This document shows, in pieces, positions 1-30,374 of a stretch of DNA of 55,682 bases (positions within the stretch are counted from its first letter, which is position 1; every line of letters begins with the position of its first letter). The notes under the pieces were generated by a model, which was given only the letters and a program-made list of their open reading frames with translations, was not told the DNA's origin and did not search any database. Source of the DNA: an uncultured virus (IMG/VR IMGVR_UViG_3300025141_012107) (taxonomy: Duplodnaviria; Heunggongvirae; Uroviricota; Caudoviricetes). The position numbers were made by a program, and so were the translations under genes. The stretch lies in IMG/VR virus record IMGVR_UViG_3300025141_012107; one strand, 5' to 3'.

Positions 1-223
1 ACAGGTTGACGATGAACAGTTCCTTATGGTCACGGATCTCGCCATTGTCAGCATACCATGCGCCCAAACGAACGTAGAACAACGGATCTTGAGCAATCAT
101 CTGTTCATGAACAGGATGACTTGCGCTCAGATTTCTGTGGGGAGTCATCAACAGCGTATTCAGCATCCCCAAACGAAGATCCTGTTCACTGGACGTATCA
201 ACTTGTGCAGTTCGTACAGCCAT
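1..223 (-). CDS. N-terminal part (runs off the window) of a probable TROVE/Ro60-like (ROT)-vWA family protein
   Basis: Hand translation MAVRTAQVDTSSEQDLRLGMLNTLLMTPHRNLSASHPVHEQMIAQDPLFYVRLGAWYADNGEIRDHKELFIVNL, with AAGGAG RBS. It resembles the N-terminus (E.DLRL.MLN.LL.TPHR, DP.FY, G..RDHKE) I recall for cyanobacterial/planctomycete TROVE-like vWA proteins. Not in the ORF track because it is truncated. Confidence 0.6.
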   Translation of the reverse strand, partial: MAVRTAQVDTSSEQDLRLGMLNTLLMTPHRNLSASHPVHEQMIAQDPLFYVRLGAWYADNGEIRDHKELFIVNL

Positions 224-273: not shown

Positions 274-483
274 TTAACCGAATACAGCCTGCGGACGAAG
301 AGTCATGTCACCGGTTTCTGCGTTGCGGTCAACAACGAAACCATTCATCTTGGTGAGAGGAGCACTGAAGTGATTAGCTACAGCCTGCTTGACGTCTTGG
401 TCGGTAGAGAGATCGCCCACATCGATATCCTCGAAGAGAAGATCGAACGATTCTCCATTGTATCTGACGTGAAGTACTGACAT
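274..483 (-). CDS. Small ubiquitin-like (beta-grasp) protein ending in AVFG
   Basis: 69 aa; LHVRYNGESFDL start and LRPQAVFG C-terminal Gly; AAGGAG RBS. Confidence 0.6.
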   Translation of the reverse strand: MSVLHVRYNGESFDLLFEDIDVGDLSTDQDVKQAVANHFSAPLTKMNGFVVDRNAETGDMTLRPQAVFG

Positions 484-528: not shown

Positions 529-660
529 AGCCTTGTCTAAGTTTCAGGACGGTTTCTTGGGTAACGTGCAAGATTTGAACTTGCGACCTTCACTTCCTAA
601 TAGTGACGCTCAACCTACTGAGCTAACGTTTGTAACGTCCAAATTGTTGGAGACAAGGCT
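529..660 (-). ncRNA. Y-RNA-like RNA A: tRNA-like domain nested inside the conserved module
   Basis: 10-bp terminal stem AGCCUUGUCU/AGACAAGGCU followed by a U-run; inner stem GGACG/CGUCC; UACAAAC; D arm GCUC-AGUAGGUU-GAGC; anticodon-like arm UCACU-AUUAGGA-AGUGA; T arm GCAAG-UUCAAAU-CUUGC. Confidence 0.75.
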
Positions 661-663
661 AAG

Positions 664-798
664 TGGGAGAGGTAGGAGTCGAACCTACGAGTCTTGCGTT
701 TTCAGGGCAATGCTTTACCAAAAGTTTGTAAGCTACATCCCATTGGAGACGGACAAGCCGTCTAAGTCAGAATAGCTATAGCACTAAGCTACTCTCCC
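664..798 (-). ncRNA. tRNA-Phe(GAA)-like RNA B with about 60-nt structured D-loop insertion
   Basis: Acceptor GGGAGAG/CUCUCCC-A; T arm GUAGG-UUCGACU-CCUAC; anticodon loop CUGAAAA (closing pair is a C-C mismatch); D-loop holds ACUUAGACGG-CUUGU-CCGUCUCCAA...UACAAAC. Confidence 0.8.
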
Positions 799-823
799 AT
801 AATTATTCAGTTTTCAAAAAGCG

Positions 824-894
824 AACGTCCAAGTTCAGGCAGCGGTCAAAGCATTCCGAAGATTGGTTTGTATGCTGTCCTTGTTGGGGACGTC
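824..894 (-). ncRNA. Minimal module-only RNA C (no tRNA domain)
   Basis: GACGUCC-CCAA...CAGC-AUACAAAC...GCUG...AACUU-GGACGUU. Confidence 0.7.
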
Positions 895-908
895 AACTTA
901 ATTTCAAG

Positions 909-1050
909 TGGGGGAGACAGGACTCGAACCTGTAGTCTTTCGCTTATGAGGCAAACGCTTTTCCATTTGTTTGTAAGCTACGACCTATTGGAGACGAACA
1001 AGCCGTCTAAGTTGGAATAGCTGTTTAACGTAGTTTTTAGCTACTCCCCC
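909..1050 (-). ncRNA. tRNA-Met/Ile2(CAU)-like RNA D with about 68-nt structured D-loop insertion
   Basis: Acceptor GGGGGAG/CUCCCCC-A; anticodon arm UUUGC-CUCAUAA-GCGAA; T arm ACAGG-UUCGAGU-CCUGU; insertion nearly identical to that in RNA B. Confidence 0.8.
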
Positions 1051-1055
1051 ATGGA

Positions 1056-1100
1056 GGTCCCGGTCGCCAAGTTTCCGAAGAAGCTTGACGAGTCAGGACC
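1056..1100 (-). other. Long UUCG-capped hairpin within the ncRNA cluster
   Basis: GGUCCUG-ACUCGUCAAG-CUUC-UUCG-GAAA-CUUGGCGA-CCGGGACC. Confidence 0.5.
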
Positions 1101-1142: not shown

Positions 1143-1287
1143 GGCGTCCAAGTTCGAGCAGCGGTATGACATTAGTCACAGATCTTAAATCTGTTGCCTT
1201 ATCCACTTGGCTATACGTTCATGTTGGTGAACATAGTGGGATTCGAACCCACGTTGTTGTTTGTACGCTACGCCAGTAGGGGACGCC
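1143..1287 (-). ncRNA. YrlA-like RNA E: circularly permuted tRNA-Leu(UAA)-like domain inside the conserved module
   Basis: 5'->3' order: GGCGUCC-CCUA, GUAGC, UACAAAC, T arm (GUGGG-UUCGAAU-CCCAC), acceptor UAUGUUCA/UGAACGUA closed by loop CCAACA, D arm, anticodon arm (UAA), GCUGC, AACUU-GGACGCC. Confidence 0.8.
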
Positions 1288-1418
1288 GGTTTCTTCTTCA
1301 CTTGTCAAAGTCGAGCCTTACGACTCTGCCCTATCTTATCAGCTTCCCAGCCACTTTCAAGGGCAATATTCAACTTATCGGCTTTTTCTTGAAATTCCTT
1401 TAATGAATTCCGCAAAGC

Positions 1419-2474: not shown

Positions 2475-2560
2475 TACGGATAAGAGGAGTCGAACCTCCA
2501 TGGGATTTTACTCCCGCTAGATTCTGAGTCTAGTGCGTCTGCCTATTCCGCCACATCCGC
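2475..2560 (-). tRNA. tRNA-Leu(CAG)
   Basis: Cloverleaf, loop CTCAGAA, long variable arm. Confidence 0.95.
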
Positions 2561-3052
2561 TCTTAAGTCATTTTTGTTCTTGTTCCTTCCTCCATATGTA
2601 GGAGTTTGACTATGACAATTTGGACATAGTAATCTAAGATTCCTTATGCGATTGTCTGTCCTGTCTCCGTTCTCGTGGTCCAAATGCATTGAAAGAGGTT
2701 CTCCATTCCACTCTGTTCCCATTCCGCATTTAGAACATTTTTCTTCCAGTTTGCCACATTCGATTAACCTTTTCTTAAGGTGGCAATTGTTGTATACGAC
2801 TCCCTTTTTTAGGAGATCCCTTAACTCTCTCTTACTAGGTGGGCTCCATGTTTTATCAAGCTTTCTTCTAGATGCCTGCCCTAAAAAATGACTCGTATCT
2901 ATCTTGAAGTTTTCAATCTTGCCCTTCAAGTGAGAATGATTCCCCCCTGAAGGAGCAAGCCCTATCTTCTCCAAAACCTGGCTAATGGAGAAAGAAGTAG
3001 CTACTGCCTCCTCCAGATCTTGGATAGAATACCTTTTCGACGTATGCTTCAT
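2543..3052 (-). CDS. HNH homing endonuclease embedded in the tRNA array
   Basis: CxxC...HLDHENGDRTDNRIRNLRLLCPNCH; stop codon lies inside the tRNA-Leu(CAG) D-loop. Confidence 0.9.
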   Translation of the reverse strand: MKHTSKRYSIQDLEEAVATSFSISQVLEKIGLAPSGGNHSHLKGKIENFKIDTSHFLGQASRRKLDKTWSPPSKRELRDLLKKGVVYNNCHLKKRLIECGKLEEKCSKCGMGTEWNGEPLSMHLDHENGDRTDNRIRNLRLLCPNCHSQTPTYGGRNKNKNDLRADVAE

Positions 3053-28466: not shown

Positions 28467-28883
28467 TTAATCAAACGGGGTTTCTGTTTCGTCGCCCTCT
28501 ACGTCAGGCAACTGTCTTCCAAACATAGCGAATATTGCATTTTCCGTAATACTCAACGTATCGTCTAGCTGTTGATGAACCTCCGAAGTCTGAGGCATTT
28601 GAGTTGCCAAAATCTTTGAGAGGATGTCAGGTTGTTGAGACAATGTATCATGCTGTTCCAGCATAGACGAAAACATCTTTTCGACTTCTAGACGCCAATT
28701 GTCTAGCCATTCCCGGAATAGTTGTTCTCCGCCGTCCATTTCTTGGTCCAGATGACTCCTAACCACCTGTAAGGTAGCGTATTGGACGAACGAATTTACC
28801 AAGGCTGACATATTGTACAGTTGTTGAGATTCCATTGCAACCCTAATCTGTTCCTGGCCAAAAATCAGTCCATACTTTAACAT
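28467..28883 (-). CDS. Hypothetical protein
   Basis: ORF with GGAGG RBS. Confidence 0.6.
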   Translation of the reverse strand: MLKYGLIFGQEQIRVAMESQQLYNMSALVNSFVQYATLQVVRSHLDQEMDGGEQLFREWLDNWRLEVEKMFSSMLEQHDTLSQQPDILSKILATQMPQTSEVHQQLDDTLSITENAIFAMFGRQLPDVEGDETETPFD

Positions 28884-29112
28884 AACCCTCCGGCACTCCT
28901 CCGATGTCTCTTCGGATATGAATCTCAGCCGCTTTAGCAGTTTTGTCTCCCCATTTCAAACGGCAATGACGAACACCTCCAGTGTTGTGGCGAAACCTGC
29001 GATGAGTAACCCCAACATACTTATATAACTCGTCAAGCCACAGATGAACTTGAGGAAAGGCTGAGCCCAACTCTCTTTCGCAGTCCTCGCAATGTTCTCT
29101 GAAAAACGCCAT
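28843..29112 (-). CDS. His-rich hypothetical phage protein
   Basis: H..VHLWLD...HRRFRH...HIRRD. Confidence 0.55.
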   Translation of the reverse strand: MAFFREHCEDCERELGSAFPQVHLWLDELYKYVGVTHRRFRHNTGGVRHCRLKWGDKTAKAAEIHIRRDIGGVPEGYVKVWTDFWPGTD

Positions 29113-29504
29113 CAGTCGTCAACCATGTTGGTGGCAAATATTATTGCCATCTTCCGCCCCTCGTTTGTTGGTGCGAAGCGAGCAACTGGACTTACTCCGC
29201 TTGTTTCGGCAAAATGAGGATCAAGCTTGCCATTGCGCAAGCATCTTTCGAATATATCTTTGCGATAAACAAGGATCTTATGACCTTCATAGTTTGTACA
29301 TCCGTAATACTTTACTCTAGCAACAACCAAATCTCCTATGCGATCTATGCTCATAACAGAAAAACTACTAGGATTAGGATTCGGCGGAGAAGGTGTTGGA
29401 TTGGGATGATAAACCTCTGCAAGCTTCCAATCGCAACGAGGACAGAAGCGATCTTTGTCATATGAGCTGTAAGAGCTTGAACCAAAAGGTCCTGGCATTC
29501 CCAT
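29112..29504 (-). CDS. Hypothetical phage protein (PNP, GCTNYEG.KILV, LDPHF, ARF.PT motifs)
   Basis: ORF with conserved-looking motifs. Confidence 0.65.
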   Translation of the reverse strand: MGMPGPFGSSSYSSYDKDRFCPRCDWKLAEVYHPNPTPSPPNPNPSSFSVMSIDRIGDLVVARVKYYGCTNYEGHKILVYRKDIFERCLRNGKLDPHFAETSGVSPVARFAPTNEGRKMAIIFATNMVDD

Positions 29505-29521
29505 TTGTTTATCCCTTCAAA

Positions 29522-29594
29522 TCAGACTGACAGGATTTGAACCTGCGACTTCTGCGCCCGAACGCAGTGCTCTACCAAACTGAGCTACAGTCTG
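29522..29594 (-). tRNA. tRNA-Pro(CGG) with 6-nt anticodon loop
   Basis: CTGCG-TTCGGG-CGCAG; rest of the cloverleaf is canonical. Confidence 0.75.
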
Positions 29595-29766
29595 TTTATT
29601 CTAACATTCATTGCTCCACTATAACATGCACATGTTATTGAGCAATAATAGGGTTTACTAATGTCGTGGTCGTCTGGAACTTCAATTTCTTGACGACCAC
29701 GCTTTTCTTCAGGTTTTGACCAGTGAGGTCTTCTTTCGCCGCATTTTTCATATGAACATTTGACTT

Positions 29767-30054
29767 TCATGCCAATTTTCCGTAAACGGCGTTCGCTGAG
29801 ACCCATCCGTTAATACCGCCCTTGTTATTCCCTATCTGGAAACGATTGCCGTTCACTGCTTTTACGAAATGCAGATACTGGTTACCGCCAACTTTGCAAA
29901 GAACAATGTCTCCTTTTCTTATCTCGTCTCTGACGGGTTCGACCGTACACAGTTGCCCAGACTTAACTACGGGGTGCATAGAGTTCCCTCTTGGAAAAAA
30001 CTGAACCGTTTGTCCATCTTTCAATGCTTCGATATGTTTAGTTGCCCATCCCAT
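29767..30054 (-). CDS. S24/S26 peptidase-like small protein
   Basis: GNSMHP, GDIVL, YLHFV, IGNN. Confidence 0.65.
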   Translation of the reverse strand: MGWATKHIEALKDGQTVQFFPRGNSMHPVVKSGQLCTVEPVRDEIRKGDIVLCKVGGNQYLHFVKAVNGNRFQIGNNKGGINGWVSANAVYGKLA

Positions 30055-30056
30055 AA

Positions 30057-30127
30057 CTGCCTCGGTTGGATTCGAACCAACGCCAACGGCTTCAAAGACC
30101 GCTCACCTACCATTAGTGTACGAGGCA
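30057..30127 (-). tRNA. tRNA-Gln(TTG)
   Basis: Cloverleaf; loop CTTTGAA; U1-A72, G73. Confidence 0.85.
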
Positions 30128-30133
30128 TTCAAG

Positions 30134-30206
30134 CTGGCCTGGTAGGACTCGAACCTACAACCGACTGGATCAGAACCAGTTGCACCGCCAATTGTGCTAC
30201 AGGCCA
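30134..30206 (-). tRNA. tRNA-Gln(CTG)
   Basis: Cloverleaf; loop TTCTGAT. Confidence 0.9.
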
Positions 30207-30225
30207 ATTCTTTATTATCGACAAG

Positions 30226-30300
30226 TGGGCGAGAGAGGATTCGAACCTCCGACTTCTACTTTGTAAGAGTAGCACTCTGGCCAGACTGAGTTACACGCCC
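30226..30300 (-). tRNA. tRNA-Val(TAC)
   Basis: Cloverleaf; loop CTTACAA. Confidence 0.9.
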
Positions 30301-30305
30301 TATAT

Positions 30306-30374
30306 GGGAAGCGTCCTACCACTAGACGACGGAGGCCGAAGCCTCCGGCAGGATTCGAACCTGCGTTTCTTCCC
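30306..30374 (-). ncRNA. Circularly permuted tRNA mimic without an anticodon loop
   Basis: GGGAAG-AAAC-T arm (GCAGG-UUCGAAU-CCUGC)-CGGAGGC-UUCG-GCCUCCG-UC-D arm (GUCU-AGUGGUA-GGAC)-G-CUUCCC. Confidence 0.85.

Follow-up and report, generated by a model that had tools for sequence, protein, structure and literature searches.

Two transfer RNA-shaped genes of a huge phage carry a conserved two-helix handle in the D-loop and lie upstream of a predicted Ro60-like protein

Background

Ro60/Y RNA particles are known from animals to bacteria, and their bacterial roles are poorly defined. Here we describe an array of small RNA genes in a 55,682-nt stretch of DNA from an uncultured huge phage (IMG/VR record IMGVR_UViG_3300025141_012107, Caudoviricetes; this whole stretch is referred to as the window), in which two transfer RNA (tRNA)-shaped genes, at 664..798 and 909..1050, contain in their D-loops a closed version of an element, the handle, that also brackets the neighbouring RNAs of the array. 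The array is 100% identical to an IMG/VR record (G001; 122.6 kb, estimated 26% complete), and it ends about 310 nt upstream of the gene for a 514-aa protein that we read as Ro60-like. All genes discussed lie on the minus strand.

According to the available text of PMC4201824, YrlA RNAs with a tRNA-like domain adjoin Ro60 in bacteria and in 22 phages, and Ro60 binds a bulged helix, the remainder of the RNA being a tether or gate. The Ro60 of Thermus phage phiLo binds two Y-like RNAs encoded upstream of it and joins the host PNPase (PMC12135203, accessible portion), and TROVE proteins are present in a few jumbo phages (PMC7824862, accessible portion). That phages and bacteria possess Ro60 with adjacent tRNA-mimicking Y RNAs is therefore already known, as far as the partial texts of PMC4201824 and PMC12135203 go.

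The locus described here resembles these systems in its layout. As in the YrlA systems and other bacterial and phage Y RNAs (PMC4201824, in the text available), small RNAs stand beside a putative Ro60 homolog, and their 5' and 3' ends pair in a stem with a conserved bulge or loop; the systems also have a tRNA-like domain in common, and one RNA of the array (RNA-A, described below) has the YrlA order of T arm, closed acceptor and D arm. It differs in that the array RNAs retain anticodon arms, in that arrays contain 5 to ~15 genes, in that the partner protein escapes the Pfam TROVE model, and in that the handle of the two tRNAs is closed by a hairpin and sits in the D-loop of a tRNA whose order is normal and whose acceptor ends are free. 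Phage phiLo likewise possesses a Ro60 homolog with Y-like RNA genes (Yrl1 and Yrl2; PDB 9KOP, 9L5Y) directly upstream; however, its RNAs carry a CGAA motif, are two in number rather than an array, and have no tRNA body mentioned in the accessible portion of PMC12135203. A literature search, with most subscription papers outside it, returned nothing on a Ro60-type handle inside a tRNA or on the family of the 514-aa protein. New, as far as this search shows, are the handle, the Ro60 branch missed by family models, the arrays and, above all, the graft of the handle onto complete tRNAs within their D-loops.

Two tRNA-shaped genes with enlarged D-loops

The gene with anticodon GAA (Phe-type; 664..798, 135 nt) has a 7/7 acceptor stem (GGGAGAG/CUCUCCC, 798-792/671-665), a D stem GCUU/AAGC (789-786/715-712), an anticodon at 703-701 within the loop CUGAAAA, a T arm at 688-672 (stem GUAGG/CCUAC, 5/5; loop UUCGACU) and a discriminator A. 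The gene with anticodon CAU (909..1050, 142 nt) has the acceptor stem GGGGGAG/CUCCCCC (7/7; 1050-1044/916-910), the D stem GCU/AGC, an anticodon at 948-946 within the loop CUCAUAA, and a T arm at 933-917 (stem ACAGG/CCUGU, 5/5; loop UUCGAGU). A 5-bp stem, a 7-nt loop and U33 are all present in its anticodon arm, while the anticodon stem of the GAA gene contains a C31.C39 mismatch and its loop is canonical.

The D-loops measure 70 nt (GAA) and 77 nt (CAU), as against ~7-11 nt in the standard tRNA criterion, and neither gene is among the 23 tRNAs called by ARAGORN in the window. The Rfam tRNA model (RF00005) matches both, at 33.2 and 35.4 bits against a gathering threshold of 29, although these matches are local, covering the 3' two thirds of each gene and skipping part of the D-loop. 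A first-pass annotation of this DNA had proposed two tRNA genes with perfect acceptor and T stems and near-identical 60-70-nt inserts in their D-loops, and had given a consensus string for the insert. Read on the minus strand, the genes and their stems are as proposed, the string is correct, and the inserts consist of a 54-nt core, identical at 48/54 positions, preceded by 8 (GAA) or 15 (CAU) unshared bases; the core is situated after the 5' strand of the D stem and before the D-loop GG. What that annotation overlooked is the C31.C39 mismatch and an alternative pairing of the handle strand GUAGCU, to which we return below.

The insert is a closed form of a conserved handle

In tRNA(GAA) the core forms a loop-closed handle (724..777) that is supported by covariation and scores 55.5 bits with R1, our covariance model of closed handles. 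Its 5' part comprises an upper-stem strand (AGCUAU, 777-772) and a linker (UCUGACUU, 771-764), followed by the lower stem (763-758/752-747) with the loop CUUGU, and its 3' part comprises a bulge and loop (CCAAUGGGAU, 746-737), the returning upper strand (GUAGCU, 736-731) and the motif UACAAAC (730-724). The handle of tRNA(CAU) (969..1022; 52.6 bits) differs in its lower stem by a change from G-C to G-U. Closed handles in general begin with one strand of the upper stem, four variable bases and ACUU, continue with both strands of a 6-7-bp lower stem and the loop between them, and then lead through a C-rich bulge (CC, W, A, Y) and a few variable bases to the second upper strand and single-stranded UACAAAC. 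Two copies of the core motif are present in the window where 0.16 would be expected, and 0/100 shuffles gave two or more matches.

The same handle is found in five neighbouring RNAs within 760 nt, its stem sequences varying while their complementarity is kept. In three of these RNAs the handle is open: the two ends of the RNA, 5' and 3', pair to make the lower stem, and the upper stem encloses a cargo. The two tRNAs have the loop CUUGU capping the lower stem. The earlier suggestion that the insert is a permuted module consequently holds: it is the loop-closed, circularly permuted version of the element that brackets the neighbouring RNAs.

Comparative material was obtained in several ways. A blastn search of the 761-nt array against 50,697 phage records gave zero matches, and the exact core motif retrieved only the same virus from viral contigs. 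Looser two-part patterns were needed, and these retrieved handles from other huge-phage contigs, most single matches of the looser patterns being probably due to chance. Searches with the neighbouring 514-aa protein yielded 17 viral loci, in 11 of which a regular expression combined with a pairing rule identified 54 handles (33 open, 21 closed); much of UACAAAC and the first C of the bulge are built into the expression, and the lower stem is what the pairing rule selects on.

The structure of the handle is conserved and covaries. Across the 21 closed handles, which originate from 9 viral loci, 92.4% of alignment cells are paired, and 9/12 pairs vary on both sides, in 51 cells; the covariation score was reached by 0/500 shuffles, and controls with slid partners are 31-48% paired. 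In a set of 52 distinct handles, 84% pairing is seen in the upper stem, a part that selection had ignored; 1000 shuffles of its partners average 68% and never exceed 74%.

The 3' strands of hY RNAs read ACUUGAC, and the corresponding opposite strand of the handle reads ACUUG(G)AC. A further likeness to metazoan Y RNAs, whose motif GGUCCGA is cited in the accessible parts of PMC4201824 and PMC12135203, is that the lower helix ends in GUC(C) and is followed by a bulged C on the 5' strand. However, the conserved letters of the handle differ from the animal Ro60-binding motif GGUCCGA, Rfam gives no sequence-level match, the cargo is a different one, and the setting here is prokaryotic and viral.

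A predicted Ro60 ring downstream of the array

The gene downstream of the array, which escaped the first-pass annotation, is the key to how we read it. The window contains the first 74 of its 514 codons (1..223), the remainder being in G001. The 514-aa protein has at least 1920 homologs; it finds no match in Pfam or PADLOC, and its best sequence matches in the PDB are two TROVE proteins at E = 0.19. An AlphaFold2 model based on 32 homologs (pLDDT 84, pTM 0.68) is matched in Foldseek ranks 1-12 exclusively by Ro60/Rsr/TROVE chains, over the full length, with probability 1.00 and TM 0.55-0.67; these include human and Xenopus Ro60, Deinococcus Rsr and the Ro60 of Thermus phage phiLo (9kop and 9l5y). 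In addition, the Pfam 'Ro60 vWA domain' is matched by 4/4 homologs scanned, two of which exceed the cut-off. Given that the model matches full-length Ro60 and that relatives match the Ro60 vWA domain, we read the protein as a divergent Ro60, predicted to consist of a HEAT-repeat ring and a vWA domain with a DxSxS site.

Handles are tied to this gene family in relatives as well. We applied a looser, pairing-based scan to the DNA upstream of the Ro60-like gene in the 17 viral loci and in 80 bacterial loci (cyanobacteria, planctomycetes, acidobacteria and others), with the opposite strand as a control. Handles on the gene strand were detected in 11/17 viral loci (64 handles) and 73/80 bacterial loci (259 handles), while the opposite strand yielded one and three handles, respectively. 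Closed handles account for 27/64 in viral loci and for 0/259 in bacterial loci. Within a relative of 373 kb (G002, estimated 98% complete), all nine R1 matches at E <= 0.001 lie shortly upstream of the Ro60-like gene (28,872-30,365), within 24.4-28.6 kb, and the other 18 pieces of that genome give zero R1 matches even at E <= 1; the regular expression, applied to both strands, places 15/19 of its matches in the same 24.4-28.6 kb stretch. The idea of a protein-docking handle, already voiced in the first-pass annotation, fits this context, with the array directly upstream of a protein whose model matches full-length Ro60 and with handles at so many of the viral and bacterial loci.

The hosts of closed handles are tRNA-shaped well beyond the window. 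R1 returned 42 rows at E <= 0.001, of which two repeat the window, leaving 40 distinct matches; after removal of six that span two adjacent open handles and of one 41-nt partial match, 33 compact handles were examined. A 7/7 acceptor stem together with a 5/5 T stem hosts 27 of these 33, a combination found in 215/3000 random G002 windows. Acceptor sequences differ between hosts, and anticodon loops are varied and mostly canonical (CAU, GAA, GUU, UCU, CCU, UCC, UUU and others), although a few hosts have truncated or degenerate anticodon arms (e.g. L123 3130-3243, L125 83-193). GGUA or GGAA, representing G18-G19 and A21, follows the handle in most hosts. These residues build the tRNA elbow together with the T loop, and since they are kept after the handle, we place the handle in the length-variable part of the D-loop, from which an extra arm can project with the L-shape unbroken. 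Ordinary tRNA genes for Phe (two), Met (three) and Asn (three) are present elsewhere in G002, and the handle-bearing copies there are therefore extras, which makes them look more like a mimic or tether.

Overall, the handle is seen in four arrangements: one is closed, in the D-loop of a tRNA, and three are open, the cargo being a permuted tRNA mimic, a tRNA-like body in normal order or a small hairpin. A further graft site, between the D and anticodon arms, is seen in handle RNAs of three bacterial loci (L213 1900-2400, L212 2300-3100, L163 3300-4000), which have the order handle 5' part, anticodon-like arm, T arm, closed acceptor, D arm, handle 3' part. A handle-framed tRNA at L126 3696-3818 has the anticodon UCA, which would read UGA, and G002 encodes a CUA (amber-reading) tRNA elsewhere in its genome (167507-167581). 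A distant relative (L132 1254-1396) has a tRNA match of 143 nt with an insertion of ~70 nt in the anticodon loop, an interruption of another kind than the handle.

Chimeric Y-RNA-like RNAs as the probable reading

We consider it probable that the two genes encode chimeric Y-RNA-like RNAs, each composed of a complete tRNA body and, in its D-loop, a 54-nt two-helix handle that docks onto the Ro60-like ring. By analogy with Ro60 and the bulged helix of Y RNAs, the ring would bind the bulged helix of the handle together with the flanking UACAAAC, and the insert would be retained in the mature RNA rather than spliced out. The tRNA body would keep its L-shape (G18-G19, the T loop and a 7-bp acceptor stem being kept in most hosts) and may act as a displayed module that engages a tRNA-recognising factor, as is thought for the tRNA-like domain of YrlA. 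Such a factor would thereby be linked physically to the ring and to the ubiquitin-like, E1-like and JAB proteins encoded with it; our guess is an anticodon nuclease or an enzyme of repair or turnover. The varied anticodons are of kinds attacked by known anticodon nucleases, and for this reason a bait or decoy role for the handle-bearing tRNAs is attractive, if a guess as well.

Several observations weigh against this reading. The minimum-energy folds that RNAfold predicts for both RNAs are not cloverleaves; in the window phage the handle strand GUAGCU duplicates tRNA positions 7-12, and RNAfold prefers the resulting alternative pairing, although the duplication is not general among relatives. 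The Pfam TROVE model misses the 514-aa protein, with no match in G001, so that homology to Ro60 rests on the predicted fold, and other conserved neighbours, such as a 311-aa protein, could be the true binder of the handle. The regular expression reveals no handle in 6/17 viral loci, two of which have variant handles by eye, and the invariance of UACAAAC, the bulge C and the lower stem in the 52-handle set is partly imposed by the expression and pairing filters. Finally, the handle departs from YrlA in its C-rich bulge, ACUU and UACAAAC and in being without the bacterial Y RNA motif GNCGAA, and the Rfam YrlA model (RF02553, threshold 69 bits) gives zero matches on the two tRNAs, 19.8 bits for RNA-A and 32-41 bits for the cargos of the bacterial loci.

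Alternative explanations

One alternative is that these are working translation tRNAs, charged and used by the ribosome with the handle retained, to which the ring is recruited for protection, quality control or regulation. We regard this as rather unlikely, although several features speak for it: the perfect acceptor stems, the discriminator A, the 7-nt anticodon loops with U33 and a purine at position 37, the G18-G19 and T loops kept in most of the 27 hosts, and the location of the insert in the length-variable part of the D-loop. Moreover, the window and G001 yielded no further tRNA-Phe, but G001 represents ~26% of the genome and the lack of a second tRNA-Phe therefore means little, while in G002, which has ordinary Phe, Met and Asn tRNAs, the handle copies are extras. 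Degenerate or truncated anticodon arms in several hosts, and C31.C39 in the GAA gene, also speak against it, as do the closed-acceptor mimics, which bear the same handle but have no means of being charged.

A second possibility is a new small intron, excised by an endonuclease and a ligase to leave 75-nt tRNAs. As in genes with tRNA introns, extra sequence here interrupts otherwise good tRNA genes, and in the window phage a GUAGCU(UA) direct repeat flanks the insert, making a clean excision conceivable. We nevertheless judge an intron very unlikely because the same element, found outside tRNAs as well, forms the end-stem of free-standing RNAs and of closed-acceptor mimics, neither of which has anything to splice. 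Most relatives lack the flanking repeat, and excision of the 54-nt core would leave a D-loop of 16 or 23 nt. Whereas archaeal introns have a bulge-helix-bulge of two 3-nt bulges and a 4-bp helix, the covariation-supported fold of the handle lacks this motif and by inspection consists of 6-bp stems around an 8-by-10-nt internal loop; whereas group I introns have a core of ~200 nt or more (P3-P8), the insert measures 54-70 nt and finds no such match in Rfam even at E <= 10. Rfam reveals no other intron or ribozyme either, and together with the covarying fold it sustains the doubts of the first-pass annotation, which had noted that bacterial self-splicing tRNA introns are far longer and had seen no bulge-helix-bulge motif: neither the size nor the form of the insert suits an intron of either type. 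Four DNA sequencing runs contained short identical contig pieces only, with no variants, joints or insert-free form, at a coverage too poor to be informative, and no RNA sequencing run is listed as containing this stretch. The GUAGCU(UA) repeat was also considered as a target-site duplication, a candidate that was dropped given relatives without the repeat.

A third possibility, that the handle is a processing signal of which both internal-loop strands are cut, so that ligation circularises open cargos and trims closed ones after the manner of red algal permuted tRNA genes, is in our view just as improbable as an intron. It finds some support in RNA-A, a permuted tRNA with ACCA in its acceptor loop, and in the ACCA encoded after the acceptor stem of many normal-order cargos. 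Permuted tRNA genes occur in the red alga Cyanidioschyzon, and in RNA-A, as in these, the 3' half precedes the 5' half. However, relatives close the acceptor stem with tetraloops, UUCG or GCAA replacing tRNA ends in 2/4 permuted cargos seen, and the Ro60-like neighbour points to a mimic; no splicing endonuclease or RNA ligase was found among the window's open reading frames scanned, and the tie to the Ro60-like gene has a simpler explanation. Least credible of all are decayed tRNA pseudogenes struck by a small repeat or mobile element: the element does occur five times in 760 nt and ARAGORN calls neither gene, but 27/33 insertions, across relatives whose Ro60-like proteins are only 47-62% identical to that of the window phage, keep 7/7 acceptor stems as against 7% by chance, both handle stems show compensatory changes, and the position relative to one gene family is fixed.

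Other RNAs of the array and neighbouring genes

The three open-handled RNAs of the array differ in cargo. RNA-A (1143..1287; handle GGCGUCC/GGACGCC and GUAGCG/CGCUGC) contains a permuted tRNA-like body with YrlA topology, namely a T arm, a closed acceptor hairpin, a D arm and an anticodon-like arm (UAA). RNA-B (824..894; GACGUCC/GGACGUU) contains only a short UCUUCGGA hairpin. RNA-D (530..659; GCCUUGUCU/AGACAAGGC) contains a normal-order tRNA-like body at 632-559, called by ARAGORN, with the anticodon UAG, a 5-bp acceptor and a short variable arm. A run of seven U (529-523) directly follows RNA-D, and together with the lower stem of that RNA it resembles an intrinsic terminator of the array (523-538), one unlisted by the consensus scan.

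Ahead of tRNA(CAU), a leader hairpin (1056..1100; GGUCC...GGACC) with a UCUUCGGAA motif was identified by eye. A second common motif, UCUUCGGA(A/U)GUUUG, is present in hairpin cargos and in this leader (window 824-894 and 1056-1100; L122 2380-2495; L127 2536-2624). A promoter-like site ahead of the array (1333..1360; TTGAAA-16-TAAGAT) is a consensus match only. The ACUUGGAC repeats were considered as -35 boxes and dropped, a single weak consensus match overlapping such a repeat. Elsewhere in the window, ARAGORN reports a tRNA with a two-base anticodon (29522-29594(-)), and an HNH endonuclease gene stands among tRNA-Leu genes (2543-3052(-)).

Between the array and the Ro60-like gene, starting 47 nt after the array end, lies the gene for a 69-aa protein (274..483) with the C-terminus RPQAVFG. 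Its model (pLDDT 88) is beta-grasp-like, and the best fold matches are ubiquitin-like, albeit weak (best E 0.047, TM ~0.5). The 311-aa neighbour has no match in Pfam, PADLOC, PDB sequences or the ESM Atlas. Gene order is conserved as 69-aa protein (with an invariant C-terminal RP.AV.G), Ro60-like protein, 311-aa protein, JAB peptidase and ThiF/E1-like protein (window 274-483(-) and 1-223(-); L008 2426-4415(-)). Within a distance of 4 kb, the 69-aa and 311-aa genes are each found at 14 of the 17 viral loci, and the JAB and E1-like genes at 7 each. It is unusual for a Ro60-type ring to be tied to a ubiquitin-like conjugation set. At 2/17 viral loci (L125 3920-4000, L137 3946-3996) a half-handle, consisting of the lower stem-loop, the C bulge and AAY, abuts the AAGGAG ribosome-binding site of the Ro60-like gene, an arrangement that may reflect autoregulation by the protein.

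Implications for Ro60 and its RNAs

A very common RNA-protein family of the Ro60/Y RNA layout, present in cyanobacteria, planctomycetes, acidobacteria and huge phages, escapes both Pfam TROVE and Rfam YrlA, and handle-bearing tRNA genes likewise escape tRNA finders. Its handle is portable, occurring at RNA ends, in the variable region and, so far only in phages, in the D-loop of complete tRNAs with varied anticodons. The role of the tRNA-like part of Y RNAs becomes directly testable through cargo swaps on one handle. Should the handle-bearing tRNAs be real, chargeable tRNAs, by which huge phages physically couple a Ro60-type ring to aminoacyl-tRNA partners, a prospect that we hold to be doubtful, then the ring and the ubiquitin-like, E1-like and JAB proteins would be linked to synthetases, EF-Tu, the ribosome or host anticodon nucleases, and a Ro60 particle would sit on a working tRNA, sensing or countering attacks on translation. 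More generally, the arrays suggest phage tRNA baits, and they link a Ro60-like ring to a ubiquitin-like conjugation set.

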